From Bdellovibrionales bacterium (GTDB lineage Bacteria > Bdellovibrionota > Bdellovibrionia > Bdellovibrionales > JAMPXM01): a DNA stretch of 34,842 bases. Position 1 is the stretch's first letter. Each line of letters begins with the position of its first letter. A model generated the notes under the pieces. That model made no database searches. It had not been told where the DNA came from and worked only from the letters and a program-made list of their open reading frames with translations. The stretch covers positions 1-34,842 of the forward strand of contig JAYUEN010000372.1 of assembly GCA_043739185.1 (NCBI GenBank). The letters run 5' to 3'. The position numbers and the translations under genes were made by a program. Shown here piece by piece: positions 1,509 through 34,255 of the stretch.

Positions 1509-2495
1509 CTATTTTTTAGTTGGTGTTGCTGGGCTCCTAAGTAAACCAAAGATTTCGCCAAACAAATAAAAAATATGGGTAGAAAATAGTAGGCCTGTTA
1601 TTGCCAAGGCGTATCTTGGCGATAATCTTGCGGCCGATACAAGAATAGAAAAAAAATACAAAGCTACAAAAATGCAAAAATAGAGAGGAGCTTCGCCTAT
1701 TAAGTAAATGGCAACTAGAAACAACCAAAGCGGAAGGCATTTTCGCGTTAGAAAAAAACTGAGATGAACTCTCGCGGTTTGGGTCTGAGCCGCCCCATAT
1801 TTAAAGGATTTTTTAAGCCATTGAATCAAATCTTGAGCGACTTGATGTTTGGCGTGTGCCTCTTTCACCCAAAGAATTTTTTTATTCATTTGAGAAAGGC
1901 GCCAATGAATTTCTAAATCTTCACCTGTTTTGTCAAAACTGGTGTTGAAAGAGCCCGCCTTCAAATAATCTGATCGTTTAACAAGTAAATGTGCTGTAGG
2001 TGCGTGTGAGATTAACTTCTCGGCAAACGAGTTCTTCATTTGGGCCGAGCCAAAATTTCCCCACCAGCTAGCTTGCAATAGTGCGAGTCTCTTTTGAAAT
2101 TCGTTCGTTCCAGATACCTGGAGGGGGCCAGACGCCGCACATACTGAGGAATCATTAATGTGCTGTGAGAGTGCGTTAGATAATAGTAGAATCGTATTTG
2201 AATCGGGGGTGACATCCACATCAATAAAGTAGACCAATTCAGAAGATGAATGTTCAAGGATCCAGGCCCGGGCCTCTCCCATATTATTTCGTTCAGACTT
2301 TTGAATTCTGAACTTCCATTTACGATTTTTACAATTTTGTTCGAAAGTCTCTGCGCTCGAGTCTCTTGAATTATTATCATAGCCCAAAACTTCAAAGTGA
2401 ATTTGATTTGGCAGCGCCATAGCTAAGGCATCAAAAAAACCTGCAAAATGTGCAGCTTCGTTTCTGAATACTATGCCAATCGTCATTTCGATCAT
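1509..2495 (-). CDS. Glycosyltransferase family 2 with C-terminal transmembrane helices
   Basis: IVFRNEA, YDNNSRDSS, FIDVD (DxD) and GEDLE motifs. Three hydrophobic C-terminal segments. Confidence 0.88.
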   Translation of the reverse strand: MIEMTIGIVFRNEAAHFAGFFDALAMALPNQIHFEVLGYDNNSRDSSAETFEQNCKNRKWKFRIQKSERNNMGEARAWILEHSSSELVYFIDVDVTPDSNTILLLSNALSQHINDSSVCAASGPLQVSGTNEFQKRLALLQASWWGNFGSAQMKNSFAEKLISHAPTAHLLVKRSDYLKAGSFNTSFDKTGEDLEIHWRLSQMNKKILWVKEAHAKHQVAQDLIQWLKKSFKYGAAQTQTARVHLSFFLTRKCLPLWLFLVAIYLIGEAPLYFCIFVALYFFSILVSAARLSPRYALAITGLLFSTHIFYLFGEIFGLLRSPATPTKK

Positions 2496-2566
2496 TTTTG
2501 GGGAGCTCCGTACTACCTTAATATTTTAAGTAGGACAGACTTTCTTCGATATGTCATACTCTACCG

Positions 2567-3874
2567 GTGAGTATCTCAGAATATTTTAATAAAACTAAGA
2601 TCAAATTAGACAAGATAAGTCCGAGTTTTTGTTTGGCGAAATGGACTCATCTTGGTTTGCACCTTCATTCTGGAGAAGGGCACTCTTGCCATCACCCAAG
2701 TCCTCAGCCAATTCCGTTAGATAAGATTTTAGAAAACCCCAGCGCTTTGCATAATACTCCACAAAAGATTGAAGCTCGTTCTGAAATGCTAAAAGGTTTG
2801 AGACCTAAAGAGTGTCGGTATTGTTGGACCATGGAGGATTCGGGACCTCAAGTTTTGAGTGATCGCATTGTGAAATCTTCTAATATTGATTTCGAAACAG
2901 AAATTGAGAAACTAAAGTTGAATCCAGCGGGTCAGTTTTTCAAACCCAAATATCTTGAGGTGGGCTTTAGCAATCTCTGTAATTTGAAATGCGTCTACTG
3001 TGGACCTCACTTCTCAACTGCATGGGCGAGAGAGCAAGAAAACTTCGGCCCGATGAAAGATTATCCACAGACGAGTTCGACGATTGGTGACGCTGATAAT
3101 CCATATGTGACCGCTTTTTTTCGCTGGTGGCCTGAAATTAAAACCAACCTCGAGGTTTTAAGATTAACCGGTGGCGAGCCACTACTAGCTGATGCGGTCA
3201 TTCAAATATTGCAGGATATTCTTGAAGGTCCCAAGCTTGAGCTCAAACTCATAATCAATTCTAATTTGAGCGTTCCTGATAAACGTATGGATACAGTCAT
3301 AAATCTAGTAAGCGCCTTGCACGCAAAAAACAAAGTAAGTCGTATTCAAATCATCTCTAGTATGGAGTCGACTTCAGAAGTCGCTGAATATATGAGATTT
3401 GGAATCAGCAATGAGGTTTTTTGGAGGAACATTGTTCGCATACGAGACTTAGGCTTTTGTGATTTAAGTATTACAGCGACCATTAATGTTCTCTGCTTAG
3501 GTTCCCTTTATGAGTTTTACAAAAAGGTAGGGATTTTGAAAAAAGAGATGAATCTAAAATATGGCGCTAAATTTTTTATAGATCCATCTTTGCTGAAGGA
3601 GCCTGATTTCTTAAATATTCTTCATTTTTCAAATGAAATCAAAGATGCTTTTGCTTCTGAGATAGAGCGCATTTTAAATCAAGCAGATAGCCTAATGTTA
3701 AGTGATTACGAAGTGTTTCGATTAAATGGTCTGCGACAAGTTATAGATGCTAGTAAAACGGAGTCTAAACCCGAAGTATTGCCTAGATTAAAAAATTTTC
3801 TGCTTGAAATAGATAAAAGAAGAAATTTGAATTATCAGAAGACATTTAAGGACTTGGCGCCATTTTTGATCTAG
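2567..3874 (+). CDS. Radical SAM protein with N-terminal twitch/SPASM-like domain
   Basis: CNLKCVYC, TGGEP, NSNL. N-terminal FCLAKW...SCHH...CRYC. Confidence 0.88.
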   Translation: MSISEYFNKTKIKLDKISPSFCLAKWTHLGLHLHSGEGHSCHHPSPQPIPLDKILENPSALHNTPQKIEARSEMLKGLRPKECRYCWTMEDSGPQVLSDRIVKSSNIDFETEIEKLKLNPAGQFFKPKYLEVGFSNLCNLKCVYCGPHFSTAWAREQENFGPMKDYPQTSSTIGDADNPYVTAFFRWWPEIKTNLEVLRLTGGEPLLADAVIQILQDILEGPKLELKLIINSNLSVPDKRMDTVINLVSALHAKNKVSRIQIISSMESTSEVAEYMRFGISNEVFWRNIVRIRDLGFCDLSITATINVLCLGSLYEFYKKVGILKKEMNLKYGAKFFIDPSLLKEPDFLNILHFSNEIKDAFASEIERILNQADSLMLSDYEVFRLNGLRQVIDASKTESKPEVLPRLKNFLLEIDKRRNLNYQKTFKDLAPFLI

Positions 3875-4038
3875 AGCCTTTGTAACCGCAGATTGAACGC
3901 TTTTTTTCAATTATGAAAATGAGTTAAATATTGCCGATTGATTAGTTAATAGACTTTAATATTAAAATATCGATGCTGTGCAAGGTTTTGGGTGATTTTA
4001 GTACTTTAATTATCGAAATTAATGTGTGATCGACAAAT

Positions 4039-5193
4039 ATGAAATATTTAATTCAAGAGATTGTTTTTACAAATTCTGATTTAAGCTGGATGCAGAGATA
4101 TTGGACGGATCCGTCTGCAAGACTTACTTATTTGTTACGAAGTGAATTCGATCAACTTTTTTGGCAGAACTATGCACAATGTCTAAGAAAAAAAATCGAA
4201 GATGGTGAATTGTTGTTTCGTGCAAAATGGGGTCGTTCTGAGGGTGAAGTTTGTTTGACTCAAATTTGGAAGTCAGAAAATTCTATGAACAAATTTAGAG
4301 CCGAAATTGATATGGCCGAAAAGTCTAAATCTGTTCTTCAGCGGCAAGGAATAGAAGCAAATGAAAACCTAAGCTGGTTAGATACTAGTAGTATTGAGGT
4401 TTTCATCAATAGCATTTTAAAAAGAGAGCACATAATTCAAGCTTTAAATCCAGTGTTTAAAACTGACGTTCCAAAAATTATGGGTGACCCATTGAAGAAG
4501 AAAAATTTATCTCCTTTTCAAACCCACACCTCAGCCAGAGACATGGATATTCTTTTTGCGAGCTTGTTTTTGCCACCTTTTCCTAGGACCTCGGTTTTGG
4601 ATAAAATTCTCAAAGTCGAAAAATCTCACTGGCACTGGGATGATTATAGACAAGTCGAAATGTTGCCTTTGATGACATCCAATGGGAATTCAAGTCGAAA
4701 TTCAGTCAACGCCCAAAATGCCACAGCTACTTATCAATGGACCGAAGATGCGCCTCTCGAATTGAGAAATTATTTTGATCAGTATATTTGGGATTGGGTG
4801 AAGCCTCAATCAAGAGTTATGATTTTAAAAACAAAGCCGGGTGCGAGAAATCAAGAGCATATAGATTGCTCGCCTGATCAATTTGAAAAGCTTCAGCTCA
4901 AACTGCGCATTGTTCTACAGGGGCGTACAGATTCACTTTACTTTATAACAAAAGGGGCGCCGATCTTTGCTCCTGCAACAGATGGTGCCTATCTTATAGA
5001 TGGAAGTTGGCCCCATGGCATGATTAATAATTTTTCAGACGACAAATATACATTGTGTATTGGAGCGCCTTGGACCGGATCTAATTTTTATCCAGCATTT
5101 GATTCAGTTATTTATCGTGATCGAAACTTATTGCCAGATAATTTTTCATCTTATTTCGATAAAAAATATTCTAATAGACCTCTTTCATACTAA
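4039..5193 (+). CDS. Fusion of an uncharacterised N-terminal alpha/beta domain and an AspH-like 2OG-Fe(II) oxygenase domain
   Basis: C-terminal RVMILKTKPG...HID...LRIVL...DGSWPHGM gives an HxD...H facial triad on a DSBH fold. The N-terminus resembles ORF 9241..9765. Confidence 0.7.
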   Translation: MKYLIQEIVFTNSDLSWMQRYWTDPSARLTYLLRSEFDQLFWQNYAQCLRKKIEDGELLFRAKWGRSEGEVCLTQIWKSENSMNKFRAEIDMAEKSKSVLQRQGIEANENLSWLDTSSIEVFINSILKREHIIQALNPVFKTDVPKIMGDPLKKKNLSPFQTHTSARDMDILFASLFLPPFPRTSVLDKILKVEKSHWHWDDYRQVEMLPLMTSNGNSSRNSVNAQNATATYQWTEDAPLELRNYFDQYIWDWVKPQSRVMILKTKPGARNQEHIDCSPDQFEKLQLKLRIVLQGRTDSLYFITKGAPIFAPATDGAYLIDGSWPHGMINNFSDDKYTLCIGAPWTGSNFYPAFDSVIYRDRNLLPDNFSSYFDKKYSNRPLSY

Positions 5194-5354: not shown

Positions 5355-5996
5355 TCACAAATGAGTGGAGTGTGATTGCTCAATGCCTCGACGAGGCAAT
5401 GGAGCGAGCATAGAATCAGTAAAGCTTTGATCATAGCTAGTTGCCGCGATCCAGTGCCAACAGATTTCTAATTTGGTATTGTTGCATACATTAAACATCG
5501 CACTCTCGATGATTTTAAGGCGTGGTAAATCGCGAGATAAGAGCGCGTTTACTTTGGACTCCATAAAGAAGCGAAATGAGCGAAGACCGCGATCACGGCT
5601 TACAAAAACTCCTTTGTATCCAAGATCTTTGCAAAGCTCAATTTGGTGTCGAATGATGGCTCCGCCAAATAGAACTCCGTCGCTGGTGCGGCCGATCGTT
5701 TCGATATTTAGACTTTGAGAACGAAATTCTGGAAAGATGAAATGCCTTGTATTTATTCGGCAAAAACCTTCTGGAAAATGATCTTTTTTTTGAATACAGC
5801 CAATACTGACGGGGGCACCATCAATCATCAATAGATTACAAACTTCAATGGTGGAGTCGATCCAGGGATCAAACTTCTGATAGTTTACATTGAGTCTGTG
5901 TGGAGGCTTAGCATTTCGTAAATAGGATCTTACCGTATTGGATTCAAAACTGTTTGGATTGGATTTTATATCGATGATTTGGATTTCATTTTTCAT
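5355..5996 (-). CDS. GNAT-like acyltransferase (putative)
   Basis: RINTRHFIFPEFRSQSL (motif A-like) and QIELCKDLGYKGVFVS (motif B-like). Confidence 0.55.
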   Translation of the reverse strand: MKNEIQIIDIKSNPNSFESNTVRSYLRNAKPPHRLNVNYQKFDPWIDSTIEVCNLLMIDGAPVSIGCIQKKDHFPEGFCRINTRHFIFPEFRSQSLNIETIGRTSDGVLFGGAIIRHQIELCKDLGYKGVFVSRDRGLRSFRFFMESKVNALLSRDLPRLKIIESAMFNVCNNTKLEICWHWIAATSYDQSFTDSMLAPLPRRGIEQSHSTHL

Positions 5997-6021: not shown

Positions 6022-6480
6022 TTACTTCTTTTTATCAGTTTTTACGCACTGATTTTTTCCAGCTGCAACCCGCATGACATTTATGAATGTCTTTTTGTTT
6101 AAAATAATGAGACATCCATTCACTTTATTGCTGCAATCCGTACTCGTATATTGAAAATCTGGAGCTTTAAATGTTTCAGCTAAGTGCTGCTTTAAACTTT
6201 CTCGTTGAGGTGCAGTGAGATTACAATCTAAAATGGCAGCTTCTGTAGCCAATTTGACTTCGCAAATATTGCCTGGCGAGGACTTAAGAATATCAAATTG
6301 ATATTTTTTTTGAACGCCATTTTCTAGTCTGCTGCTATTGCAGGACGCCGTTTGGCAGGTTTTTAAATTTTCTAAGAACTTACCGCAGTTGGGACTAATC
6401 ACTGAATTTTTAATGATGAAGTTCTGATCAGCGGCATAGGTACGATTTAAAAGTAAAAAAAGAATTAAATTTAAAAACAT
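6022..6480 (-). CDS. Secreted cysteine-rich hypothetical protein
   Basis: Strong RBS GAGGAGG, signal peptide MFLNLILFLLLNRTYA, 8 Cys in the mature region. Confidence 0.75.
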   Translation of the reverse strand: MFLNLILFLLLNRTYAADQNFIIKNSVISPNCGKFLENLKTCQTASCNSSRLENGVQKKYQFDILKSSPGNICEVKLATEAAILDCNLTAPQRESLKQHLAETFKAPDFQYTSTDCSNKVNGCLIILNKKTFINVMRVAAGKNQCVKTDKKK

Positions 6481-6697: not shown

Positions 6698-7483
6698 TTG
6701 AATCTAGGAACAAAATCAGAAGGCAATTTTGTTGATCGATTCTACTCTCCCTTTACGTCTTGGCCGTCAATTGCTCCGAACTTTCTCGCTTTACCCGATA
6801 TTTACTCTATAGATTTACAGAAGGCGAAAAGCGAAATTGAAGCTTTAATTCAGAGGTTTGCTTTAGCTCCTTTCAAATTCGGATCAAAAGATGGTCGAGT
6901 CAGAAGTCGGTTGAGCTATAGAGGAATCGGATTGACGACTCGGCCTGAGGCCGAAGATCCATTATATGACAGTCTTAATCTTTATGGCGATCAGGGGCGA
7001 AAGCTGGATATTTATCAAACCTTCGCAAAGGTGAGCGAAAAGCTGCCTGCTTCGGAGCGTGTGATAGAGGTTTTAGATGAAACTGGATTTTCAGAGTTGA
7101 CCGAGGCTTGCACGCCATATTTTCAGTCCGTTCTTAGTAAATTCAAATCAAACTATTCAAAAGTTCGATTGTTAGAACTAATGCCTGGAGGCCAAATTCC
7201 TCCTCATGTGGACTTTCCGTATTATGAAGGAATTCGTGTTCATGCTGTGATTGATTCAAATCCGGAAGTGCTATGGGAAGTAAACGGCGAGCAATTCAAA
7301 ATTCCGTCAGATGGTCGTTTCTATTGGTTTGATACAGGTAAATATCATGCGGTTTCAAATCCAGGAAAAACGCCTAGATTGGTTCTGAGCATCAATCTTT
7401 TAGTTTATAAAAACCGTGATGGCAGCCAGCGCTTCAAAGAGAATCATAATTTAGAAGACTTAATTTTAAAGGCATTAATATGA
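6698..7483 (+). CDS. Aspartyl/asparaginyl beta-hydroxylase-like 2OG-Fe(II) oxygenase
   Basis: VRLLELMPGGQIPPHVD...RVHAVI...FDTGKYHAVSN...RLVL. Confidence 0.88.
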   Translation: MNLGTKSEGNFVDRFYSPFTSWPSIAPNFLALPDIYSIDLQKAKSEIEALIQRFALAPFKFGSKDGRVRSRLSYRGIGLTTRPEAEDPLYDSLNLYGDQGRKLDIYQTFAKVSEKLPASERVIEVLDETGFSELTEACTPYFQSVLSKFKSNYSKVRLLELMPGGQIPPHVDFPYYEGIRVHAVIDSNPEVLWEVNGEQFKIPSDGRFYWFDTGKYHAVSNPGKTPRLVLSINLLVYKNRDGSQRFKENHNLEDLILKALI

Positions 7484-8214
7484 AACTTGATGTGCGAAAG
7501 TTTCAGCTCCTTAATTTATTGGCTGCTCTTCTGCTTTCTTATAGCTACTTCAATTGGTCGCGCATTGGGGTTTCTGGTCTCATGTATTTTCTCATGTTAG
7601 CTGTTGGAATTAATATGGGCTTGCATCGGGGATTTAGTCATGGGCGTTTAGAGCCCGATTCATTTTTTGGTAGAATTTGTCTATTTTTTTCAGTTTTAAC
7701 TTGTATGGGTAAGCCTTCGGCTTGGATTTTAGTACATCGACTTCATCATACATATTCGGATACAAATCTGGATCCGCATTCACCTACCAAATCTGGGCGT
7801 TGGCAGGTATTTGCTAATACATGGTCCCTTTCAAAAGAAATTCCCGCAAACGCTATTCTCGCTATTAAGAGTTCAATTCGAAAAAGCAGTGCCATTTTGT
7901 TTTTTGATCGAAATTATTGGACGATCATTGGATTGTATTGTGCGGCTCTTTTGATTTTTGGTGGAGTTGGAATGCTGGTTTATGCATGGTGCATTCCCGC
8001 GACCGGGGCTTTGCTTGCAACATCTTTAGTGAATGCTTTTTGTCATGATCCCAACGGAAACATTTTGAATGTGAAGTGGATTTCTTTAATGACTTTTGGT
8101 GAAGGTTTTCACAAAAATCATCATCTCAATCCGAATTCAAATCGGACGAATCAATCTGCTGTTCTGGATTTTTCTGGCTGGCTATTAACGCGATTTTCAA
8201 AGGGACCAATATGA
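7480..8214 (+). CDS. Membrane fatty acyl desaturase (delta-9/OLE1-like)
   Basis: Three His boxes HRGFSH, HRLHH and HKNHH, plus DPHSP and GEGFH. ATGA overlap with both neighbours. Confidence 0.92.
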   Translation: MKLDVRKFQLLNLLAALLLSYSYFNWSRIGVSGLMYFLMLAVGINMGLHRGFSHGRLEPDSFFGRICLFFSVLTCMGKPSAWILVHRLHHTYSDTNLDPHSPTKSGRWQVFANTWSLSKEIPANAILAIKSSIRKSSAILFFDRNYWTIIGLYCAALLIFGGVGMLVYAWCIPATGALLATSLVNAFCHDPNGNILNVKWISLMTFGEGFHKNHHLNPNSNRTNQSAVLDFSGWLLTRFSKGPI

Positions 8215-9128
8215 ATGATGTTGAAACGTTTACTTCTAGTGTAATTCAGACGCCCGGTCATTATTATGAAGTCGAGCCAGAAAACAGCAAATTCTACACT
8301 ATTGGTGTCGATGTAACACATAAATGCAATATGGAATGTGCGAATTGCTATAGCCCGATTCGAGATTTGCCCGATGTTCCACAAAAAGATTTACTTAGCT
8401 TTTTTCGAAAATTAGGAAGAAAGACGGAGGTCCGCTTCACTGGTGGCGAGCCGACACTTCGAAGTGATCTTCCTGTTTTAATAAAAGAAACTCTGGGCAT
8501 GGGGCATCGAGTGGCTATTATGACCAATGGTCTAAAATTGGCCGACTTAGAATATTGTAAGCAATTAAAAGAGGCTGGACTAAAGTTTGTATGCATTTCA
8601 ATGAATGGCGCTGACGATGATAAGGTCTATGAGAAGTTGGATCATCGTAAATGTGCAGCTTTAAAGATGGCGGCGCTAGAGAATATTGTGAAGCTCGGTT
8701 TTTTTATAAACATCAATTGTATTTTGGTTAAAGGCGTAAATGAGCATACTCCCAAGAGATTGGCTGAACTGCTCAAAAACCGAAATATAAATGGCGTTAT
8801 TCGCCTACGAAATATTGGTAAATTGGGTCGCCATATGAGCGGCTCAAACTTTACATTCGACGAGCTCATCGAGCTAATGGCCACGTCTTTCGGTCAGGAC
8901 CCTGAAGAGCTTAAAAAGTTTAGAATGGTCAACGGCTACCAAGAGGAACATAATATTTTGTTTCCACTTGAGAAAAATAAGAAGCTCAATACGACTTGGG
9001 TAAAGTTAACCGATTGGCGGCCTACTGAGAATTCGATTCCCGACCCACAAAGTACACGTAGGGGCCGAATGACAAAAGACTTTAAAGTGGCTCCCTTCTT
9101 TGAGCATGCTCAATTGAATGGGTACTAA
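8211..9128 (+). CDS. Radical SAM protein (MoaA/NifB/PqqE-like core, no C-terminal Cys cluster)
   Basis: DVTHKCNMECANC, TGGEPT, MTNG. Confidence 0.88.
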   Translation: MNDVETFTSSVIQTPGHYYEVEPENSKFYTIGVDVTHKCNMECANCYSPIRDLPDVPQKDLLSFFRKLGRKTEVRFTGGEPTLRSDLPVLIKETLGMGHRVAIMTNGLKLADLEYCKQLKEAGLKFVCISMNGADDDKVYEKLDHRKCAALKMAALENIVKLGFFININCILVKGVNEHTPKRLAELLKNRNINGVIRLRNIGKLGRHMSGSNFTFDELIELMATSFGQDPEELKKFRMVNGYQEEHNILFPLEKNKKLNTTWVKLTDWRPTENSIPDPQSTRRGRMTKDFKVAPFFEHAQLNGY

Positions 9129-11933: not shown

Positions 11934-12388
11934 TCGAAGGCCCTTGTTATTTTCTTTTCTTTGGTCCACGGCCAAAGGTAAGTTAATTCAAAGCTTGAAA
12001 CCATACTCTTTGAATTCAGCTGACGATAGATTGGGCCATTTGCAGAACATATACTGTAAATTAGATTTCTCTGATGCTTAAAGCTAGCACGAGTAACGGT
12101 ATTGTGATCCGCTCCAACAAAGGACATGCGGTAGCGAGTCGGGCCTTCGATATTTCGCTTCAGCTCATGGTAATTGAGAACAATCTTTGAATCATCTGCA
12201 AAATGAATTGAGATTTCATTAGGCGAAATAAACTTGTCTGTATGAAGCCCATAGTTTGAAAAGGGCACTGGTGCAGGCGATATCATAAGAGCATTTGCAA
12301 CCTCTGAGACAATGCTAAACTTTAGTAAAGCTGAAAACACATGCGAGCATCCTAGCACTACGAGTGTAATTTCGAAAAATTTTCTCAT
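11921..12388 (-). CDS. Small exported/membrane-anchored protein, probable HTTM partner
   Basis: N-terminal hydrophobic segment, SPAPVPFS motif, two Cys in the C-terminal half. Translationally coupled directly upstream of the HTTM gene. Confidence 0.6.
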   Translation of the reverse strand: MRKFFEITLVVLGCSHVFSALLKFSIVSEVANALMISPAPVPFSNYGLHTDKFISPNEISIHFADDSKIVLNYHELKRNIEGPTRYRMSFVGADHNTVTRASFKHQRNLIYSICSANGPIYRQLNSKSMVSSFELTYLWPWTKEKKITRAFECKD

Positions 12389-25391: not shown

Positions 25392-26971
25392 GAACTGAAC
25401 TATTACCAATATCAAGTCAATGCGCCTTCTCTCAAACTTGTCATTTCTGCAGTAGATTGGGGTATCGATCAAAACAAAATATTTCTGATCGAGAAGTTGA
25501 AGAAAAACAAACTAAATTGGCCAGTTCAATATCCAAAACTGTGGCGTTGCCATGCAGTTCGATCGAGCACCAAAGCTATGATAGTTTGATTGGCAAATTT
25601 GAAGCCGGTCAAATTCAGAGCCAACATATTTTTTACAGTGATTATTGGTTTGCTTTGCCTGAGTCTAAGCAACAGAAATTGAAATTGAAACCTATTGCAA
25701 TCTTTTTCACTTCTGTAGATGCGCTAGCAAAAGCGCATTTGCCAAAGCAAGTAAAGAAGTACTTTCTTGTTCTGAAATCAAGCTGGAATTTGAATGATTG
25801 GCAAAAGCTAGCTAGAGAGATTCGCAACGACACTAAGATGTTTTTTGTTCCAAATACTGTAGAGACTGATGACTACTTTAGCGCGGTTGAGATCTATGCC
25901 ATATGTCAAGGGATTTTCAAATTGTCTGGTGATACACAATTTGAAACGCCTTTTGGACATGATTTGTTGGATAGGCGAAATCAAGGACACTTAAATTGGA
26001 TTTTTGAAGACCGGCCAATATGGATTAATCGAAAAGCTGCGGTTCCTAAAATTAGTATTATAATTCCAACTTATAATCGAAAAGATTTATTGTTCAAAGT
26101 ATTGAATAGTCTGAATGGGCAAAGTCTCAGCATTCATGATTTTGAAGTCATTGTTCTAGATGATGGCGGCACCGACAGATTGGGGCCTGAGTTGAAATTG
26201 AAAGCTGAAAGTCTGTATCGATTTGATCTCAGCTACTTTTATGTTCGACGCGAGATTGGACTTCAGGGATTTTATATCGGAAATCGAGCTGGTCCAATTC
26301 GCAATATGGGTGCGAAATGGGCGAGGGCCGATCTGTTTTTGTTTTTGGATTCAGATATTTTAATTGCAAACGACTATCTTGATAAACTTTTAGTTGTTCA
26401 CCGCGATGCTGAAGTTGTCAGTCCTAGAAGATTTTATCTCAGCAAGGACTCAAGTGTACAGGCGAATGGTCAAGACATTCTGTTTCAAGAGTCAGATAGA
26501 ATGCGTTCGCAGTGGCAAGAGTATTTGACTCATTTTTATGAAACCGGCGATTGGGAATCCGAGGGAACTCCGTGGAAGTTTTTTATGACCTTTTGCTTGT
26601 CGGTGTCACGAAAGGTTTTTGTCGAGGCCGGCGGATTTCGCACAAATTATATTTCCTATGGTTACGAAGATTTAGATTTTGGATATCGAGCCGTCAAATT
26701 GAAACCTCGCCTTAAGTTGCTAAAAACATCTGTATATCATTTATATCACTTTGAAGATTCGAGTTCTGAGTATGGTATCGATCATGACTTTAAATTTTTT
26801 CAATTAACACTTTCTTCGAGAATGTTTATATTTCAAAATGTGCCTTGGAGAATTAGTTATTTGAAATCGATGGCTACATTAAAAACAAATAAGCAGAAAT
26901 TGTATTATTTTGGATTTAAAATACTTTGGGAGATGAGATTGCTTTGGAAGGCTTGGTCCGAGGTTTTGTGA
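25388..26971 (+). CDS. GT2 glycosyltransferase with N-terminal degenerate radical-SAM-like domain
   Basis: ISIIIPTYN, DDGGTD, FLDSD, YGYEDLD. N-terminal CAFSQTCHFC. Confidence 0.85.
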   Translation: MRTELLPISSQCAFSQTCHFCSRLGYRSKQNISDREVEEKQTKLASSISKTVALPCSSIEHQSYDSLIGKFEAGQIQSQHIFYSDYWFALPESKQQKLKLKPIAIFFTSVDALAKAHLPKQVKKYFLVLKSSWNLNDWQKLAREIRNDTKMFFVPNTVETDDYFSAVEIYAICQGIFKLSGDTQFETPFGHDLLDRRNQGHLNWIFEDRPIWINRKAAVPKISIIIPTYNRKDLLFKVLNSLNGQSLSIHDFEVIVLDDGGTDRLGPELKLKAESLYRFDLSYFYVRREIGLQGFYIGNRAGPIRNMGAKWARADLFLFLDSDILIANDYLDKLLVVHRDAEVVSPRRFYLSKDSSVQANGQDILFQESDRMRSQWQEYLTHFYETGDWESEGTPWKFFMTFCLSVSRKVFVEAGGFRTNYISYGYEDLDFGYRAVKLKPRLKLLKTSVYHLYHFEDSSSEYGIDHDFKFFQLTLSSRMFIFQNVPWRISYLKSMATLKTNKQKLYYFGFKILWEMRLLWKAWSEVL

Positions 26972-27082: not shown

Positions 27083-28315
27083 TTAGATTTGGTCAATTGC
27101 CGTCAGCTCGGGAAAGACATTAGTGAAATCCTCTTGTCTCGAAACGTCCAGCGCTTTAGTTTTAGATAAAAAATCAGGCATTAAGTGAGAGAGATCTTGT
27201 TGCATTAAAAAATTTATGATCGACTCGTATCTAGATCGAACTATATTAAACTCAGTCGATGAAGCCGTCCCTTTCGCCCAAGCTAAAAAATCATTAATTT
27301 TCAAGAGAACTTTTTCTTTTTCTTGTCTCGTTAGGATTTGAATTCGAAAGTGAGTCGGATAAAAGAGCAGATTCGGCACAAACTCAACTATAGGAATAAG
27401 CCCCTGCTCGGTCCACTCCTTATGAAAATCGGTAATATGATAGATATTGAATACGCTGAGGGTCACGATGATGGTGAAATGAACTTCCGGCGCTTCTCGC
27501 ATCAAGCGTTTTCGATTTTCTAGTATTTGGGTCCACTGCTGGCCTTTTCGAATGTACTCTCCGCGCTCATGGGTGGCGTCGAGACTCGCCCAAACGTGTA
27601 TGCTTTCAAATTTCTTCCAATATTCTAAAGCATCATAATTTTTAAATTTTAAAACAGAAAGGTTTGTACTGTAGGAAATTTTAGTTTTAAACATTTTCTT
27701 TTCAACGAGCTTGTCGAGTAACTGCCAATGTTCGTCCATAATCAAGGGCTCACCACCTGCAAAATACACCCACTCCAGCTCTTCAAAATGCGACTCGAGT
27801 TGGTGCCACAATTTATTGACCTGATTTATTATTTTTTTTACCGGTGGGCCCAAATTCGGATCAAGCTTTTTGGTTTCCTCATACCAGGCGCTGCTGTTTA
27901 GAAATCCACAGGTGCGGCATTTATAATTGCATAGGTTAGAAAAGCGAAAATCCCAAAAGGCCAAAAAAAATTCGGCCTTGCCGTCGGCATCAGTTTCGTT
28001 AATTTTAGCGAAATGTTTACTGAAGTTGTTGTTAATAAATCGACGATGAGAATTGCCGCCTGCATCCTCAATTTCAAAACATTTTTTACAGCCAGCGGGC
28101 CGGGCGCCACTTATCATTTCTTTCCGAAGATCTCTCATTTCTTTCTGATTGAAAACTTCTTTCAAATCTTTCTTGTCAAGGTGAGCTAATGGTTGGTTTG
28201 AGTCCGTAAAGCAGCAGGGAAACACCTCGCCTTGTGTGCTAATGTGAAGGTGCGTCCAAGGGCTCATGCACAAGCTTGGGTGAGTCTTCACGTCATTTGG
28301 ATTTGAAATCTTCAT
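27083..28315 (-). CDS. Radical SAM protein with N-terminal twitch/SPASM-like domain
   Basis: CMSPW...FPCC...CKKC, CNYKCRTC, AGGEP, YSTN, EYIRKG. Confidence 0.9.
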   Translation of the reverse strand: MKISNPNDVKTHPSLCMSPWTHLHISTQGEVFPCCFTDSNQPLAHLDKKDLKEVFNQKEMRDLRKEMISGARPAGCKKCFEIEDAGGNSHRRFINNNFSKHFAKINETDADGKAEFFLAFWDFRFSNLCNYKCRTCGFLNSSAWYEETKKLDPNLGPPVKKIINQVNKLWHQLESHFEELEWVYFAGGEPLIMDEHWQLLDKLVEKKMFKTKISYSTNLSVLKFKNYDALEYWKKFESIHVWASLDATHERGEYIRKGQQWTQILENRKRLMREAPEVHFTIIVTLSVFNIYHITDFHKEWTEQGLIPIVEFVPNLLFYPTHFRIQILTRQEKEKVLLKINDFLAWAKGTASSTEFNIVRSRYESIINFLMQQDLSHLMPDFLSKTKALDVSRQEDFTNVFPELTAIDQI

Positions 28316-28554: not shown

Positions 28555-30666
28555 ATGCTAGAGCAAACAATTTGGCACCCAATATCCAGTTCAAAAATAT
28601 TTAGAAGTTGGCCTGAAATTTTTGATTTGGACCATCCCAAATGGAGCTATATTGACTTCTTTAAATATGAAGCCATTTTAGTTCGCCGAGAACATTGCCA
28701 GGGATTTTCATATGAGCAAATCATCTTATTGAAGTCACTATTGACTGCAAAAAGTATTCGTTTGATTTTACAAATTGAAAGTGCAGACCTTCGAGACTTG
28801 GTACTTTTAAAGAAAATTGTATCCTTAGAGCTAGCGATTAATATTAGATTTAATTTAGCGTCAGAGTTGCTACTTGACGTTGGCAACTTAAACGTTGCTT
28901 GGTTCACATTGCAGTTAACTGCAATGACAAACTTGAATGTTATGAAAGTCATTGATTTTGAATCCAATGGTGTCCCAATTTTTGTCGAAATTTCAAGGGA
29001 AGGAGCGTTGCCGCCGTCGAGCCATTCAATTGAAATCGCAAAAGCACAATATCAATTCTTTGAAAATAATGGCAATTTGCCACATCTATTTTCATTAGAA
29101 GAAGTCTTGCACGTTGAGCAAGAGTCTTTTTATTGGAAGAATCACAGTCTGATTGAATATAAGTATTTCGATGCTAAACCCGACTTGTCGATCATCATTC
29201 CGAGTCATAATCGAGCAAAGTATTTGATGCCTGTGCTGGCGGCCATTCAGAGTCAGGTTGATTTCAACAGATGGTTTGAAGTTATCATTATTGATGATCG
29301 TAGCAATGACCAAACTGAAGAATCCATTAGAGAGTGGATCGGTCAGAATTCTCCAAAATTCAATTTTCGCTACTTTTACATAACAAGTGATCCACTTAGT
29401 AAAGAAAAATTGAATCGTGTCGGTGCCATTCGAAATTTTGGGGCAATGAATGCATCAGCTAATAATTTCTTGTTCATTGATTCCGACATTTTACTGCCTA
29501 AGACTTTTTTGAGCGAATTGTTTAAAATGGACTTTCGAAACAAAGTCATTCAGCCTTATCGCGCAGATTTGAACCACAAAGAAACTCAAGACTTGTTTGG
29601 GTTAAATGACTTTGGTGCGAAAGCGCTCAAACACCCAGGAGATTTCACAAGTGATGCTTCAAATTTTATGAAAAACCAATCTCCCGATGCTGATTTTGTA
29701 TCATGGGGAGCCTCATATTGTTGGTGCATGACAAAAGAAAGCTTTATTACAGTTGGCGGCTTTCGAAATTGCTTTGTCACTTATGGCTGGGAAGACCTGG
29801 ATTTGATTTTTAGACTTCTCTATTTGAAAATGTCATTTGTGCCGTCAAAACAAATTGTTTTTCACGCTTATACTCTGGATGACTCTTCTGAATATTCAGA
29901 AGGAGTCTTTCATAGAAGGCTGATGCTTGCAGAAGGAGCTGAGATCTTCTTTCGTAATACTTTGTCGCTGCGCGCTCTGAAGTGCATGGTTTTTGGTTTT
30001 TTTCGGGCCATAATAATTTTGCAAAAATACAGGCGATATATTGAGCCTAACTTTAAAAGTTCTTATTTAGACTCATTCAGTCTTGATCAGATAATGAACT
30101 TGGGACAGGTGATACTTCCGAGCGTTCGCTACCCTCAAGTTTTTTTTGAAACTGAAAGTCCAATGAAGTTTTTAGAATCGGTTTTTCCGATTGATTTCAC
30201 GTTTAAGAAGCTACTTATTCTGGGTGATGAATGTTGTACATTGCCAACAGAAATTCTTCTTAAAAAAGAGTGGGGATGTCAGGAAATTAGACGAGTCTTG
30301 AGCGATTCGAACAGCTATGAATCAGATAATTTTGTAAATTTTATTCATTTAGCTGGATGGAAATTTAAGTCAGGACGAATAAAAGACTTCAATGTTCACA
30401 ACTCTGCAATTAGTCTGATTTTGGTAAATGACAAGGGCGAGAGTGTCGAGTCGCAATTCGAGTTTGATTGTATATTGATTCAAAACATCGAACTCTTCGA
30501 AAAATTGAATGTAAACGCCTTTAAAAAGGGGACGCGACTTTTCTTTTTAATAAATATTGCGCAGTCGACGGGCTTTCGTAGGACTCTTGATAACTTTTCT
30601 CTTGGGCAAAAGAGATTTGAATACACAGATGAGCAGAACTTTGAGCTAATTCATCTAGAGATTTGA
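28555..30666 (+). CDS. Multidomain GT2 glycosyltransferase (N-terminal accessory domain, C-terminal methyltransferase-like remnant)
   Basis: LSIIIPSHN, DDRSND, FIDSD, YGWEDLD. C-terminal FDCIL...KKGTRLFF. Confidence 0.83.
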   Translation: MLEQTIWHPISSSKIFRSWPEIFDLDHPKWSYIDFFKYEAILVRREHCQGFSYEQIILLKSLLTAKSIRLILQIESADLRDLVLLKKIVSLELAINIRFNLASELLLDVGNLNVAWFTLQLTAMTNLNVMKVIDFESNGVPIFVEISREGALPPSSHSIEIAKAQYQFFENNGNLPHLFSLEEVLHVEQESFYWKNHSLIEYKYFDAKPDLSIIIPSHNRAKYLMPVLAAIQSQVDFNRWFEVIIIDDRSNDQTEESIREWIGQNSPKFNFRYFYITSDPLSKEKLNRVGAIRNFGAMNASANNFLFIDSDILLPKTFLSELFKMDFRNKVIQPYRADLNHKETQDLFGLNDFGAKALKHPGDFTSDASNFMKNQSPDADFVSWGASYCWCMTKESFITVGGFRNCFVTYGWEDLDLIFRLLYLKMSFVPSKQIVFHAYTLDDSSEYSEGVFHRRLMLAEGAEIFFRNTLSLRALKCMVFGFFRAIIILQKYRRYIEPNFKSSYLDSFSLDQIMNLGQVILPSVRYPQVFFETESPMKFLESVFPIDFTFKKLLILGDECCTLPTEILLKKEWGCQEIRRVLSDSNSYESDNFVNFIHLAGWKFKSGRIKDFNVHNSAISLILVNDKGESVESQFEFDCILIQNIELFEKLNVNAFKKGTRLFFLINIAQSTGFRRTLDNFSLGQKRFEYTDEQNFELIHLEI

Positions 30667-31506
30667 AATTCTCTTTAGGGTCTTTATTTTCTGCAGTAGA
30701 AGTTTTAACCTAGAAGACTCACCAACAAATGATTCAAAATAGATTTGAATAAATGGCGCAATACTTTGATCGTGGTCTTGCTCAGGCAACAAAGTTTTTT
30801 CTCGCGTTAGGACATCACCATTTTGCTTCTTTAAATGTCTAAAGCCTTCACCCTGACATCTTGCTTTGTAAATGAGGTCTTTTTTTGAAATTGAACTTAT
30901 ATGTTTAACCGCTTGGTCTGCAAAAAACATAAATTGATCTCCGCGTTTTGCGAGTCGATCCAGTAACTCATACTCAGTGCTTCCAAAAATCATTTGTTCG
31001 TCGAATTTGGCGGTCTGAAGTTTGGATTTTCTAAGGACGAGATTTCCTCCCATTAGGTGATCTGTGAAGTTTTGCTTTGAATAAATTCCTCCTCTTAGCC
31101 ATGCCGACTGAATCTGATGGTAAGCCCTGGTACAGACGTTCGCCTCACTCGAAAGGGTGTATGGGCCACCGCAAGCTGTGAGTTGAGGATACTTTGTCAT
31201 TTCATCCACATATTTTTTCAGAGTGAGTTCATTGTCTAGAATGCAGTCCGAATCCAAAAAGAATACTAGATCGGTTTTTGCTGCCTGAAGTCCAACATTT
31301 CTGGCTCGATTGGCACCTTTTTCAGAAGACAGTTTTCTTATTTTCAAATTTAGTGGAGGCAATATTGGCCATACCGATGTTTTAGGGTTTATGACCATCA
31401 GGACCTCTATTGAGAGATTTTTTTGTTTTTCCAAACTGGTTAGGCAGGCCATTAAATGAGTGTCGGTTGGCAAAAATGGTATGACAACCGATAGGTCAAT
31501 CTGCAT
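30655..31506 (-). CDS. GT2 glycosyltransferase
   Basis: LSVVIP, ARNVG, FLDSD, GGNL. Confidence 0.87.
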   Translation of the reverse strand: MQIDLSVVIPFLPTDTHLMACLTSLEKQKNLSIEVLMVINPKTSVWPILPPLNLKIRKLSSEKGANRARNVGLQAAKTDLVFFLDSDCILDNELTLKKYVDEMTKYPQLTACGGPYTLSSEANVCTRAYHQIQSAWLRGGIYSKQNFTDHLMGGNLVLRKSKLQTAKFDEQMIFGSTEYELLDRLAKRGDQFMFFADQAVKHISSISKKDLIYKARCQGEGFRHLKKQNGDVLTREKTLLPEQDHDQSIAPFIQIYFESFVGESSRLKLLLQKIKTLKRISNL

Positions 31507-32218
31507 ATGACTTGACTCTCTTTAGACGGCCAAAGTTGACGGCCAAAAAATACAAGTAAAGGATCCAATTCTTTTCTTTCAGATAGCGTTTAAAGTTTTC
31601 AATATTAGGATGTTTTAAAAAATTTATTGTCCTATTTGATAGATGGGACTCTAGATTTTTAAATGCAATCGTCGACATATCCATGTCTAAGAATTGTTTT
31701 TTTAAAATGAGAAACTGCTCATAAGCTTCTTCAATATCAAGGATTGTGGTAGAAAAGAATCGCTTTTGCGGCATGAAAAAGCTCAGCTTCTTAAAAAGTC
31801 GCAATCTAAATAGGGCCTCAAAGTTGATATCACTTGAGAATATAAATACAAGGTGAAGCCTTGCAATAAATTGTTCGATGAGTTCAAGCTCCCGCTGAGT
31901 CAAATCTCTATGGATCCACAATTGCACCGGGGATACTGTGGACTCAAGTAATTTTTGCAAGCTATCGATCTGGCTAAGACAAAGCTGAAACTGAATGTTT
32001 TTCTTCTGTGAAAGCGTAAGCTTTTGATAAACATCAAACTGCTCTGAATTCATAGAGTCGAAAGGAATCAAAATATTAATTTCGGGTTCCTTCGTTCGCC
32101 GCACCGCTATAGCAAGATTTTCTTCCAAAACTGGAAAGAGACCAAGTTTCCAAATCGGATTGTAATTGCATACAAACTCATTAAGGCTGACTAAGGTGTA
32201 TTCGTGTGCGGTTAACAT
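31496..32218 (-). CDS. Hypothetical protein resembling the N-terminal accessory domain of the fused GT2s
   Basis: Alternating beta/alpha pattern alignable by eye with 25388 aa ~50-175. Overlaps the start of GT2 30655..31506. Confidence 0.6.
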   Translation of the reverse strand: MLTAHEYTLVSLNEFVCNYNPIWKLGLFPVLEENLAIAVRRTKEPEINILIPFDSMNSEQFDVYQKLTLSQKKNIQFQLCLSQIDSLQKLLESTVSPVQLWIHRDLTQRELELIEQFIARLHLVFIFSSDINFEALFRLRLFKKLSFFMPQKRFFSTTILDIEEAYEQFLILKKQFLDMDMSTIAFKNLESHLSNRTINFLKHPNIENFKRYLKEKNWILYLYFLAVNFGRLKRVKSYAD

Positions 32219-32336: not shown

Positions 32337-33014
32337 TTGTCAAATATGGAAACTAGCGTCAGTTCGGCTCTAAGACTGGGTCTATTTATTAATGAAGTGA
32401 TCAAGACTAATCCAAATTTGAATTGGAGGAACGCTCTATCGAAAGAGCAGATTCGATCTAAGATTTGGCTTATAAATATGCTTCGAGAAAGTAAACTAAC
32501 CGATCTGGGGAATGTTATGATTTTAGGCGGCTGGATAGGGCTTCTTGGATATTTACTTCTTCATGACGAAGAATTGAATATAAATTACATTCGCAGCTTT
32601 GACGTTGATCCTGAGAGCATTCGAGCGGCGGATGATTTGAACTATGATCATCTGAAAAATAACTGGAAGTTTAAGTCCTGCTTCGCAAATTGGGATCTAA
32701 TCGACTACAATGAAACTATATATCATACCCATCGCTACACTGACAATCGAGATATAGATCTTACTAATCGCTTTGATACAATTATCAATACCTGTTGTGA
32801 GCATATGAGTTTATTTTCTGATTGGATTCAAAAAATTCCTGGAGATCGTCTGCTGATTTTACAGTCTAACTCTAATGCGGAGTTTGAAGGTCATACTAAT
32901 TGTAAGTCTTCTTTGAAAGAGTTTGTAAACAGTTGTCAGCTTTCACGAGTACTTTATTCGGGCGAGCTAGATCTTGGACTTTACAAACGCTGGATGATTT
33001 TTGGTTACAAATAG
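32337..33014 (+). CDS. Class I SAM-dependent methyltransferase-like protein
   Basis: VMILGGWIG (motif I), IRSFDVD (acidic end of beta2), DTIINTCCEH. Confidence 0.7.
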   Translation: MSNMETSVSSALRLGLFINEVIKTNPNLNWRNALSKEQIRSKIWLINMLRESKLTDLGNVMILGGWIGLLGYLLLHDEELNINYIRSFDVDPESIRAADDLNYDHLKNNWKFKSCFANWDLIDYNETIYHTHRYTDNRDIDLTNRFDTIINTCCEHMSLFSDWIQKIPGDRLLILQSNSNAEFEGHTNCKSSLKEFVNSCQLSRVLYSGELDLGLYKRWMIFGYK

Positions 33015-33082
33015 CTATCGCGAAAGTTCTAACTGATGGCAGTTGCCAAGATCTTACCTTGACTAATTGTGCAGGAGACATT

Positions 33083-34255
33083 TTGAAAAATACACTTTGC
33101 GTGATGCCATGGTCACATGTTTTCATTTCGAGCTCGAGCGAAGTTTATCCCTGCTGTATGAGCCAAGAGCTTTCGTCTCGCATTCGTTCCCCTAGTGGAA
33201 AACCACTTTTGGTTCAAGAGCCGCAAGATATTATTGAGGCATGGCATTCTGATCAAATGAAAGAAATTCGAAGGCAAATGATCAATGCTGAGCGGCCATT
33301 CGCTTGTCAAAATTGTTTTCAACAAGAGGATTTGGGGCAAACGAGCTACAGGGAGTCGATGAACCAGAGTTTTTCGGTCCTATATGAAGATTTGCTTGCG
33401 AAGGATGCTTCTGAGGCTCCTGATTTTAAACCTCTCAGTCTAGATTTGCGAATTTCAAACCTATGTAATTTGAAATGCCGTATGTGTGCGCCGTGGTCGA
33501 GTCGATTATTGAAAAAGGAGTGGGAATCTTTTTACCCGATGAAAAATGTCGAATCAGTTAGCGGGCTTAAGCAGCAGATTTTAGATTTTCTTTTGCAACA
33601 TTCTGGGGCCATTCAACACCTTCGATTGGCCGGTGGAGAGCCCTTCTTAATCAAAGAGCTATTTGTTTTTTTAGAATCTCTTGTGAAAAGTGGCGCATCT
33701 TCAAATATTGATCTAAGCATTAATAGCAATCTGACGGTTTTTCCTGAAAACTATAAAGAGATCTTCAAAAGTTTTCGTAATATTGTGTTGGCGGTTAGCT
33801 TGGATGGCTTTGGACCACTTAATAATTATATTCGATATCCGGCAAATTGGGATGAGATTGTTACAAATATCTCATCGGCCTTTACTTTTTCTCGTGAGGT
33901 AAAGCCTTTAGATATTCGAATTCAAACCACTGTTCAGATATACAATATTTTTAAACTGAATGAGCTCTATCGATTTCTCGACTCTGAGTTTGCTCTTCTT
34001 CCCCAGCTGAACTTTTTAAATTCTCCAGTACATTTGAGTATTCAGGCTTTACCAAATTCATTAAAAGACAAGGCGGCAAGAAGACTCGATGAAATTGAAG
34101 GCGAGTATCCTTTCAACAAAGACGTTTTGTCCATTCGAAAGTTTCTCTATGCTAAAAACGAAGCGCATCATTTTGAAGATTTTTGGCGCTGGACAGAACA
34201 TTTGGATCGCACTCGAAAGCAGAACTCATCTGAATTTTTGCCATTTGAGAAATAA
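33083..34255 (+). CDS. Radical SAM protein with N-terminal twitch/SPASM-like domain (close paralogue of 22948..24135)
   Basis: LCVMPW...YPCC...CQNC, CNLKCRMC, AGGEP, SLDG, YIRYP. TTG start at 33083 after AGGAGA (the track gives 32933). Confidence 0.88.
   Translation: MKNTLCVMPWSHVFISSSSEVYPCCMSQELSSRIRSPSGKPLLVQEPQDIIEAWHSDQMKEIRRQMINAERPFACQNCFQQEDLGQTSYRESMNQSFSVLYEDLLAKDASEAPDFKPLSLDLRISNLCNLKCRMCAPWSSRLLKKEWESFYPMKNVESVSGLKQQILDFLLQHSGAIQHLRLAGGEPFLIKELFVFLESLVKSGASSNIDLSINSNLTVFPENYKEIFKSFRNIVLAVSLDGFGPLNNYIRYPANWDEIVTNISSAFTFSREVKPLDIRIQTTVQIYNIFKLNELYRFLDSEFALLPQLNFLNSPVHLSIQALPNSLKDKAARRLDEIEGEYPFNKDVLSIRKFLYAKNEAHHFEDFWRWTEHLDRTRKQNSSEFLPFEK

Follow-up and report, generated by a model that had tools for sequence, protein, structure and literature searches.

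What does a 33-kb cluster of tailoring enzymes build when nothing to be tailored is encoded with it? The question is raised by a stretch of 34,842 nucleotides (the window) from a bacterium that is likely a relative of the predatory Bdellovibrio. With moderate confidence, our analysis suggests that the window is the variable part of a system that builds and tailors a glycan on pilin-like surface proteins, in a TfpW-like manner, using sugars oxidised by radical SAM enzymes (rSAMs). A literature search found no description of such a system. As the window is the whole of contig C372, little can be concluded from the lack of a scaffold within it, and its scaffold-less look is probably a contig-edge effect.

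Gene content of the window

The window holds 31 genes in 14 same-strand blocks (Table 1). Family matches, motifs and alignments bear out the inventory given in a preliminary description of this DNA. All four GT2s are present, as are the membrane modules (desaturase, UnbV/ASPIC, RnfD-like and two HTTM-like proteins). Three of the five AspH-like proteins pass Pfam Asp_Arg_Hydrox; the C-terminal half of 4039 and the whole of 19993 have no Pfam match, yet an alignment shows that each retains the two metal histidines. Seven of the eight claimed rSAMs are intact, while the eighth is broken by an in-frame stop codon. Two source-like runs have the same letter at this stop; in runs X3 and X5 another base gives a sense codon, and the frame is open in sister populations.

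An HMM search of 33 window ORFs gave no match to PKS, NRPS, ACP, nucleotide-sugar, flippase or peptidase families, in agreement with the preliminary description. Nor did a clear precursor peptide emerge: the 13 intergenic gaps hold no small ORF conserved in the fetched loci, a comparison that fast-evolving peptides may escape. The GT, twitch, AspH and desaturase families were all absent from each of 40 control regions, so the assembly of genes is not chance.

Table 1. Features of the window, in order of position
Position	Strand	Feature	Evidence and remarks
1336..1566	+	3' remnant of GT2 gene	tblastn 58% identity to C496:20963-21697; left synteny anchor
1509..2495	-	GT2, hydrophobic C-terminal region	53% identity to C496 paralogue
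2567..3874	+	N-terminal-twitch rSAM	NF033640, 279 bits; Cys 22/41/83/86, CxxxCxxC at 138
4039..5193	+	ABM-like domain (family of 9241) fused to AspH-like oxygenase	halves are separate genes in relatives
5355..5996	-	AspH-neighbour family, GNAT-like fold	fold inferred from motifs; no HMM match; recurs beside AspH genes
6022..6480	-	small Cys-rich protein, hydrophobic N-terminus	no homologue found
6698..7483	+	AspH-like 2OG-Fe(II) oxygenase	Pfam Asp_Arg_Hydrox; heads conserved AspH-desaturase-rSAM unit
7480..8214	+	membrane fatty-acid desaturase	HMM; three intact His boxes
8211..9128	+	MoaA-like rSAM	HMM; 401 homologues at E<=1e-40, 22 viral loci
9241..9765	+	twin-arginine motif protein (SRRDFL)	ABM-like by language-model features, a fairly high score but a lead only
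9758..10516	+	AspH-like oxygenase	Pfam Asp_Arg_Hydrox; HxH...H, HxH replacing HxD
10464..11105	+	AspH-like oxygenase	Pfam Asp_Arg_Hydrox
11064..11975	-	HTTM-like membrane protein	hhalign 93%
11921..12388	-	small partner of HTTM-like protein	54% identity in L080
12385..13227	-	RnfD/NQR2-like membrane protein	HMM
13228..15045	-	FG-GAP repeat and ASPIC/UnbV protein	HMM; single N-terminal hydrophobic helix
15038..16141	-	multi-pass membrane protein	recurs in 4/20 AspH loci
16305..18323	+	B12-binding rSAM, probable C-methyltransferase	best family KedN5, below cut-off
18304..19272	-	second HTTM-like membrane protein (weak)	hhalign 83%
19127..19693	-	single-helix small partner of second HTTM-like protein	no HMM match
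19993..20562	+	AspH-like oxygenase	motif level
20599..21714	-	broken rSAM	in-frame TAA 21529-21531 separates CxxxCxxC part from rest
21711..22535	-	short-chain dehydrogenase/reductase (SDR)	HMM
22906..24135	+	N-terminal-twitch rSAM	NF033640; 49% identity to 32933
24132..25391	+	N-terminal-twitch rSAM	NF033640; overlaps start of extended GT2
25388..26971	+	extended GT2	degenerate rSAM-like N-terminal domain; GT-A domain closest to chondroitin polymerase K4CP
27083..28315	-	N-terminal-twitch rSAM	NF033640; closest fold and sequences from phage contigs
28555..30666	+	second extended GT2, additional C-terminal domain	HMM
30655..31506	-	GT2	family in 31/43 extended-GT2 loci
31496..32218	-	possible stand-alone degenerate rSAM-like domain (weak)	hhalign 54%
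32337..33014	+	methyltransferase-like protein	LGGWxG and acidic motifs; no HMM/PDB match
32933..34255	+	N-terminal-twitch rSAM	NF033640
34658..34842	+	nitronate-monooxygenase-like gene, 5' start	90% identity to C496 gene; right synteny anchor

The ASPIC/UnbV gene lies next to the RnfD-like membrane gene, which we take to be UnbU-like, and so recalls the UnbU/UnbV cassette of enediyne clusters. Those clusters combine UnbL, UnbU and UnbV with an iterative PKSE and a thioesterase, whereas the window has neither PKS nor thioesterase among its 33 ORFs and pairs the two genes with HTTM-like genes, as does locus L080. The motifs of the protein at 32337 presumably mark a methyltransferase; its family occurs in 13 of 43 extended-GT2 loci and also in phage loci. 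The N-terminal domain of the extended GT2s is modelled as alternating strands and helices. Members of the rSAM superfamily combine CxxxCxxC with a partial TIM barrel. The domain may be related to the 8211 family (hhalign 48%), has a weak Pfam match in 1 of 20 at E 0.1, and carries CxxxCxxC in 16 of 53 members, the motif being altered in the window copy.

Radical SAM enzymes with an N-terminal twitch domain

The five twitch rSAMs score 279-395 bits against NF033640 (N_Twi_rSAM; cut-off 170 bits), and each joins an N-terminal twitch domain to CxxxCxxC. The four twitch cysteines are invariant in 24 of 24 aligned sequences. The only PDB matches of the domain are to BtrN, weak (E 0.007) but with all four cysteines aligned. 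To judge by sequence, these domains resemble BtrN, a dehydrogenase of a sugar-like substrate, rather than the peptide-acting SPASM enzymes that the preliminary description had cited. The four-cysteine cluster of BtrN is described as serving aminocyclitol oxidation, and low-potential clusters of this kind are also reported in peptide cross-linkers (both in PMC9012708). The ligation thus indicates oxidation, probably of the two-electron type, not a sugar. There are differences from BtrN besides the weakness of the match: the twitch domain is C-terminal in BtrN, the window proteins are about 410 residues long against 270, and the window has no aminoglycoside or aminocyclitol pathway genes. A literature search found no paper naming NF033640 or an N-terminal twitch; we add a pathway context for the family, of which up to nine members occur per genome.

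A second locus and its pilin-like genes

Both ends of the window match C496, a second locus of the same genome, where GT2s are followed by an NMO-like gene, a GT-C-like gene, two pilin-like genes and tRNA-Gly. C496 also carries a DPM-synthase-like GT2. The window has no GT-C, DPM-like or pilin gene, and the assembly ends before its continuation. The claimed absence of a scaffold is therefore true of the window, but C496 offers a candidate scaffold and export step in its GT-C-like, DPM-synthase-like and pilin-like genes. No dedicated flippase was identified.

The GT-C-like family (394 clusters at E<=1e-30) has invariant S-E-x-W and R-x-D motifs and 6-8 predicted helices. PMT_2 matches occur in 4 of 29 members; the family has no PDB match and does not match a local PMT_2 protein (2%), so that the GT-C assignment is weak. 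In C496 and at 20 of 35 GT-C loci the gene lies near type IV pilin-like genes; 15 of 35 loci lack them. Our custom pattern for pilins also found them at 10 of 20 separately fetched GT-C loci and 13 of 43 extended-GT2 loci, against 0 of 40 control regions and 7 of 116 tiles of the host's own genome. The predicted acceptors are Ser/Thr-rich. Of the 43 extended-GT2 loci, 11 have a DPM-like GT2 and 6 have sugar epimerases.

This arrangement resembles that of Pseudomonas TfpW and TfpO, as described in 10.1101/150227 and PMC5836110: the gene of a membrane transferase, here putatively of GT-C type, adjoins a pilin gene, the genes that build the sugar need not be linked to it, the distribution is patchy and a role in phage defence is plausible. 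TfpW is reported to glycosylate pilin and block phages (10.1101/150227). The present system differs in its acceptors, which are long pilin-like proteins (about 200-700 residues) rather than the major PilA, and in its dedicated set of GT2s, twitch rSAMs, methyltransferases and oxygenases. In TfpW-type systems the glycan is a polymer of D-arabinofuranose.

Could the target be a lipid instead? The GT-C-like protein would then work as ArnT does and attach a sugar to lipid A. Acyl chains would be hydroxylated, desaturated and methylated by the AspH, desaturase, GNAT and B12-rSAM proteins, a function with precedents in the hydroxylases LpxO and OlsC. The desaturase has intact His boxes and accompanies 13 of 20 AspH loci, some extended-GT2 loci have lpxC, GT9/KDO transferase or lptC genes as neighbours, and a DPM-like GT2 with a GT-C protein is the usual lipid-carrier design (PMC5836110). 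This reading, which we consider unlikely, leaves the pilin genes beside the GT-C gene unexplained, and the LPS neighbours vary from locus to locus. In LpxO, membrane helices flank the AspH domain; hydropathy predicts none in any of the five AspH-like proteins. A surface protein encoded elsewhere, one of the targets that the preliminary description had offered, is the likeliest.

Distribution and mosaic structure

We profiled one sample of 400 genomes of the phylum, 101 of them from the host order; related genomes are not independent, and the family profiles were built from the same loci as were counted. The extended GT2 occurs in 39 of the 400, the GT-C-like family in 35 and both in 33; twitch rSAMs occur in 109. 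In the host order the extended GT2 is found in 28 genomes and the other two families in 30 each; 27 genomes have all three and 69 have none. In four split genera the extended GT2 and GT-C-like protein are held by the same genomes (4/14, 1/26, 2/4, 2/3). Homologues thus co-localise and co-occur elsewhere rather than being scattered, the outcome on which the claim of an undescribed multi-enzyme tailoring system had been made to depend. Of 100 genomes of family f22, 56 have twitch rSAMs, 6 the extended GT2 and none the GT-C-like protein, and phages carry twitch rSAMs without the extended GT2, so other partners exist.

The window, a block likely acquired horizontally, is a mosaic of GT2/twitch-rSAM, AspH/desaturase and UnbV/UnbU/HTTM modules that are mostly separate elsewhere. 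Possibly the GT module glycosylates pilins while the other two, a cassette for a small molecule or one derived from phages, entered the same insertion hotspot as unrelated cargo. AspH genes are present at 4 of 43 extended-GT2 loci, and none of 20 AspH loci has the extended GT2; 13 of 42 AspH-positive genomes, and 22 viral loci with the AspH set, lack the extended GT2. In composition, the contig ranks 75 of 78 and is an outlier. We nevertheless think unrelated cargo improbable, as within the order the AspH set accompanies the extended GT2 in 24 of 28 genomes but is found in 3 of the 73 genomes without it; of the 27 genomes with all three families, 23 have it. The modules also adjoin in the window and in G185, G378, G374 and G147, and in L083 the AspH cluster borders directly on a GT-C-like gene. 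The hydroxylate-then-glycosylate order proposed for one substrate is not supported, since none of the 20 AspH loci has a pilin gene nearby; GT genes are seldom near them.

A RiPP cluster with an overlooked precursor peptide is very unlikely. Such clusters often have many rSAMs, AspH-type hydroxylases and B12-rSAMs, as here, and there are NCBIfam matches to peptide maturases, all far below cut-off. Against this stand the gaps without a conserved small ORF, the lack of a peptidase, an exporter or any maturase family above cut-off, the BtrN-like N-terminal twitch, and the strong links to GT-C and pilin genes. That the contig is a piece of phage or prophage binned by mistake, as suggested by the unusual composition and by closest folds and some closest sequences from phages, is hardly credible given no PHROG structural or replication match among 32 ORFs, the chromosomal locus matching both ends, sequencing depth equal to that of C496 in two runs, and the near-absence of the extended GT2 from viral loci (1 of 79; its N-terminal domain in 0).

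Phages do share part of this enzyme set. The AspH-desaturase-rSAM-GNAT set and twitch rSAMs are found in tailed-phage contigs, and in phage Mosig (MT647606) they adjoin tail-fibre genes. Variable cassettes in the host-recognition clusters of pelagimyophages (PMC7029224) and the dioxygenase clusters of Iyer et al. (PMC2938197; PMC7824862) similarly mix AspH, desaturase, GNAT, TauD, aminotransferase, rSAM and GT genes; the targets these papers put forward are O-antigen modification, secondary metabolites or collagen-like proteins. The present cluster differs in lying on a bacterial chromosome and in its tie to a GT-C/pilin system, in a phylum, Bdellovibrionota, that the relevant parts of those papers do not treat. 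It is conceivable, though rather doubtful, that predatory Bdellovibrionota and large myophages share an undescribed fibre-decoration chemistry, in which twitch rSAMs oxidise sugars, the pseudo-rSAM/GT2 fusion reads or assembles the glycan and AspH-desaturase-GNAT adds a tailored acyl group, the strain-specific coats on pili or tail fibres setting prey or host range.

Proposed pathway and its significance

In the pilin-glycan pathway that we favour, the DPM-synthase-like GT2 would load a sugar onto polyprenyl phosphate, and the GT2s at 1509 and 30655 and the extended GT2s would lengthen or diversify the glycan. The twitch rSAMs, with their BtrN-type four-cysteine cluster, may oxidise the hydroxyls of the sugars. 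Reduction or methylation could fall to the SDR, methyltransferase-like protein and B12-rSAM. The GT-C-like protein, encoded outside the window, would move the glycan onto pilin-like proteins in the periplasm. In the least certain step, the AspH-desaturase-GNAT module might supply the same coat with an acyl or amino-acid substituent that is hydroxylated and unsaturated. The likely purpose is to diversify the surface, either as a defence against phages or to attach to prey.

These results propose a concrete pathway for the large orphan rSAM family NF033640 and a context for the oxygenase/desaturase cassettes of phage host-recognition regions. They also introduce a new GT-C-like family, as well as a GT2 with a degenerate rSAM-like domain at its N-terminus. 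Glycosylation of pilin-like proteins is predicted in about a quarter of the sampled genomes of the host order; the system is present in 1 of 26 genomes of the largest sampled genus, and this scarcity may be why it was overlooked. Predation by Bdellovibrio is reported to need pili (PMC3818213), and variation in the coat could therefore affect both the range of prey and resistance to phages.

Results

The 25388 family, a GT2 extended by a radical-SAM-like domain before its GT-A domain (genes are named by start coordinate), was found with alignment A1 in 39 genomes when 400 others from the phylum were examined. The 43 loci centred on this extended GT2 held 30655-type GT2s (31), N-terminal-twitch radical SAM enzymes (twitch rSAMs, NF033640; 22), a membrane protein (13), a methyltransferase-like gene (13), 1509-type GT2s (12) and DPM-like GT2s (11). 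No family of this module occurred in 40 control regions from 23 of the same genomes; as the profiles were built from the counted loci, the informative part is this contrast with the controls.

We call the membrane protein GT-C-like on the strength of its sequence: S-E-x-W and R-x-D are invariant, 6-8 helices are predicted in the three members checked, and PMT_2 matches 4 of 29 members, while comparing the family with the PDB gave nothing clear. Its gene was present in 35 of 400 genomes, 33 of which also carry the extended GT2, even where the two lie far apart. Among 101 genomes of the host order, extended GT2, GT-C-like protein and twitch rSAMs occurred together in 27 and were all missing from 69. 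In four split genera, the genomes that carried the extended GT2 were also those that carried the GT-C-like gene (nominal p 2e-6, overstated if the carriers are subclades). In family f22, by contrast, 56 of 100 genomes have twitch rSAMs but not one has the GT-C-like gene, which counts against a strict link between the two and makes f22 a second context for twitch rSAMs. Outside Bdellovibrionota, a Bacteroidales MAG locus (L013; Table) is an independent twitch/GT-C pairing. A metagenome scan for close relatives of the extended GT2 mostly retrieved generic GT2s, with one of 80 loci scoring. P0003 and P0034 both lie on 63,982-base contigs, a hint at a possible second combined island.

Prepilin-type genes, detected by our own N-terminal sequence pattern, were found at 13 of 43 extended-GT2 loci and in 7 of 116 tiles of the window's own genome, but at none of 20 AspH loci and in none of 40 controls. 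When, as a second test, 20 GT-C loci were fetched without centring on the extended GT2, ten had a pilin-like gene, often the immediate neighbour; 20 of the 35 loci examined from 37 GT-C matches (two were not fetched) have one. At L147, a GT-C locus lacking a pilin-like gene, a protein of 1,965 aa that matches phage tail fibres is encoded two genes away. Ser plus Thr made up 17-20% of the five pilin-like proteins checked.

The source genome is 4.85 Mb in 540 contigs, and the window is the entire contig C372. We take Bdellovibrionales as the host group, since the named homologues of two window proteins belong there. C372 behaves as an island: its GC content is 39.2% (genome 41.8%), its rank in tetranucleotide distance is 75 among 78 long contigs, and no twitch rSAM scored above the cut-off in three genomes of the same genus. 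The preliminary description counted eight radical SAM genes, and the number stands; five pass NF033640, 8211 is MoaA-like and 16305 B12-binding, but the eighth is not intact, being split by a stop. This stop was present in two source-like runs, where it is fixed, and absent from two others, a recent strain-level gene loss. All four GT2s proposed are there, as are the five AspH-like proteins, three passing Pfam and two retaining the metal histidines. The window also encodes a desaturase, SDR, UnbV, RnfD-like and HTTM-like proteins. As had been said, its ORFs matched none of the PKS, NRPS, flippase and peptidase families, and a search for precursor peptides in 13 intergenic gaps found no conserved small ORF. 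The window has no tRNA genes and no repeats beyond similarity between paralogues. The fragment near its left end, which resembles a group II intron maturase, matches the short contig C331 over its first 95 bases, which may explain the contig break.

A matching cluster lies on C496 of the same genome. It comprises four twitch rSAMs; an extended GT2, a DPM-synthase-like GT2 and three other GT2s; an NMO-like gene; a membrane protein; tRNA-Gly; and two genes with prepilin-type N-termini, one of which passes Pfam N_methyl. The last two GT2s of C496 have counterparts at the left end of the window, one a remnant (58%) and the other a full paralogue (53%), and at the right end is the start of an NMO-like gene 90% identical to that of C496. 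A source-run contig extends 1,396 bases beyond this right end. These matches place 32 kb between two genes that are adjacent on C496. Read depths of C372 and C496 were 11.8 and 11.0, and 10.7 and 10.0, in the two source-like runs and differed in two other runs, consistent with a genome that has both loci, plus strain variation. The tRNA-Gly(TCC) site is a likely integration hotspot; the ORF end that follows it resembles a serine recombinase. A radical SAM gene near a pilin cluster on C270 was rejected as an ordinary MoaA within a molybdenum-cofactor operon. C22 (L016), a 2.6-kb contig of this genome, adds a further two AspH-like genes that belong to the same families.

Coordinates of features at the window and fetched loci
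Locus	Position	Feature
Window	195-521	C-terminal fragment; Pfam match absent
Window	4039	ABM-like, fused to AspH
Window	9241-9765	ABM-like, twin-arginine-type N-terminus
Window	21529-21531	Stop in eighth rSAM
L013	7556-14095	Four tandem twitch rSAMs adjoining a PMT_2 (GT-C) gene
L015 (C496)	17110-17611	tRNA-Gly(TCC), then ORF end, directly after pilin-like genes
L020	4805-6565	Degenerate rSAM-like domain, in a separate family or suggested in a long 30655-type GT2
L030	7005-8927	As L020
L054, L058, L060		As L020
L081	8630	ABM-like, twin-arginine-type N-terminus
L085	8961	As L081
L093	5178	As L081
L090	13293-15408	Four tandem 175-aa 2OG-oxygenase-like paralogues adjoining AspH and B12-rSAM genes

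Discussion

Together, these genes suggest a glycan that GT2s would build, twitch rSAMs would probably oxidise and the GT-C-like protein would transfer to pilin-like proteins. TfpW is a GT-C enzyme encoded beside its pilin, and its glycan blocks phages (10.1101/150227, PMC5836110). The Bdellovibrionales system may work in a similar way, the likeness being a GT-C-like gene adjoining a pilin-like gene, but membership of the TfpW type is unproven. On balance we lean, by a modest degree, towards this pilin-glycan mechanism.

The model of the twitch rSAM 27083 (pLDDT 93.7) found only generic radical SAM proteins in the PDB (TM up to 0.38) and phage proteins at TM up to 0.92. Four twitch cysteines, invariant in 24 of 24 sequences, align only with BtrN, whose four-Cys cluster is thought to take electrons during aminocyclitol oxidation (PMC9012708). 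This alignment favours oxidation by the twitch rSAMs; from the context, their substrate would be a sugar. The extended GT2 model (pLDDT 93.4) best matched the chondroitin polymerase K4CP (Z 24.2, rmsd 2.4, 229 residues), in a search that hardly probed residues 1-210. The first 205 residues match a radical SAM family weakly, and 16 of 53 members retain CxxxCxxC there; this is probably a decaying radical SAM domain. The domain gave nothing clear in the PDB and zero matches in Atlas, and the methyltransferase-like family likewise nothing clear in the PDB. A second, separate family of proteins also has the degenerate domain (hhalign 97%; Table), and the existence of long forms of the 30655-type GT2 suggests a fusion in that family too.

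The substrate of the AspH module could be a coat acyl substituent, a lipid or an unrelated metabolite. Alignment A7 matched AspH in 42 of 400 genomes, 29 also with the extended GT2; in the host order, AspH was present in 24 of 28 extended-GT2 carriers versus 3 of 73 others. The window's set recurs, as 20 AspH-centred regions from 18 genomes held a desaturase (13), B12-rSAM (9), 8211-type rSAM (8), GNAT-like (7) and ABM-like gene (5). L080 has the UnbV/RnfD-like/HTTM cassette too, at about 50-60% identity in the genes compared. Fibre-like genes, by a crude Gly/Ser/Thr measure, were not enriched near bacterial AspH loci (3 in 23 loci versus 6 in 40 controls). Several ABM-like members have twin-arginine-type N-termini, whereas the rest include cytoplasmic forms and fusions to AspH; the protein is possibly an exported carrier or sensor.

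Parts of the system are also carried by phages. The 8211-type rSAM was found in 22 viral loci; 15 of these have AspH, 15 a desaturase, 10 a GNAT-like gene and 2 twitch rSAMs. When long ORFs from 15 of the 22 were scanned against PHROG, 8 loci had tail, baseplate or virion genes, an uncontrolled count, and in the cultured phage Mosig the cassette directly adjoins tail-fibre genes. Trees intermix phage and bacterial copies, without giving the direction of transfer, and spread the window's five twitch genes over four subfamilies; L011, treated as phage because of its gene order, is recorded as a bacterial MAG.

Similar phage cassettes have been described, but without functional tests (PMC7029224, PMC7824862, PMC2938197). 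The open-access main texts searched gave no account of the system in Bdellovibrionota. Searching twitch, radical SAM and Bdellovibrio found no paper, though supplements may list these families; radical SAM, Bdellovibrionota and glycosyltransferase found only an unrelated one. None of five terms looked for occurs in the main text of PMC11656739.

Among cultured large phages, Vibrio phage K566 (L310) has several twitch rSAM genes in tandem and Ralstonia phage RsoM2USA (L311) has one near a carbamoyltransferase; both are tractable sources of the family. In Bdellovibrionota, the system would work as a variant on the theme of TfpW-type pilin glycosylation, one not previously described there in the literature covered.
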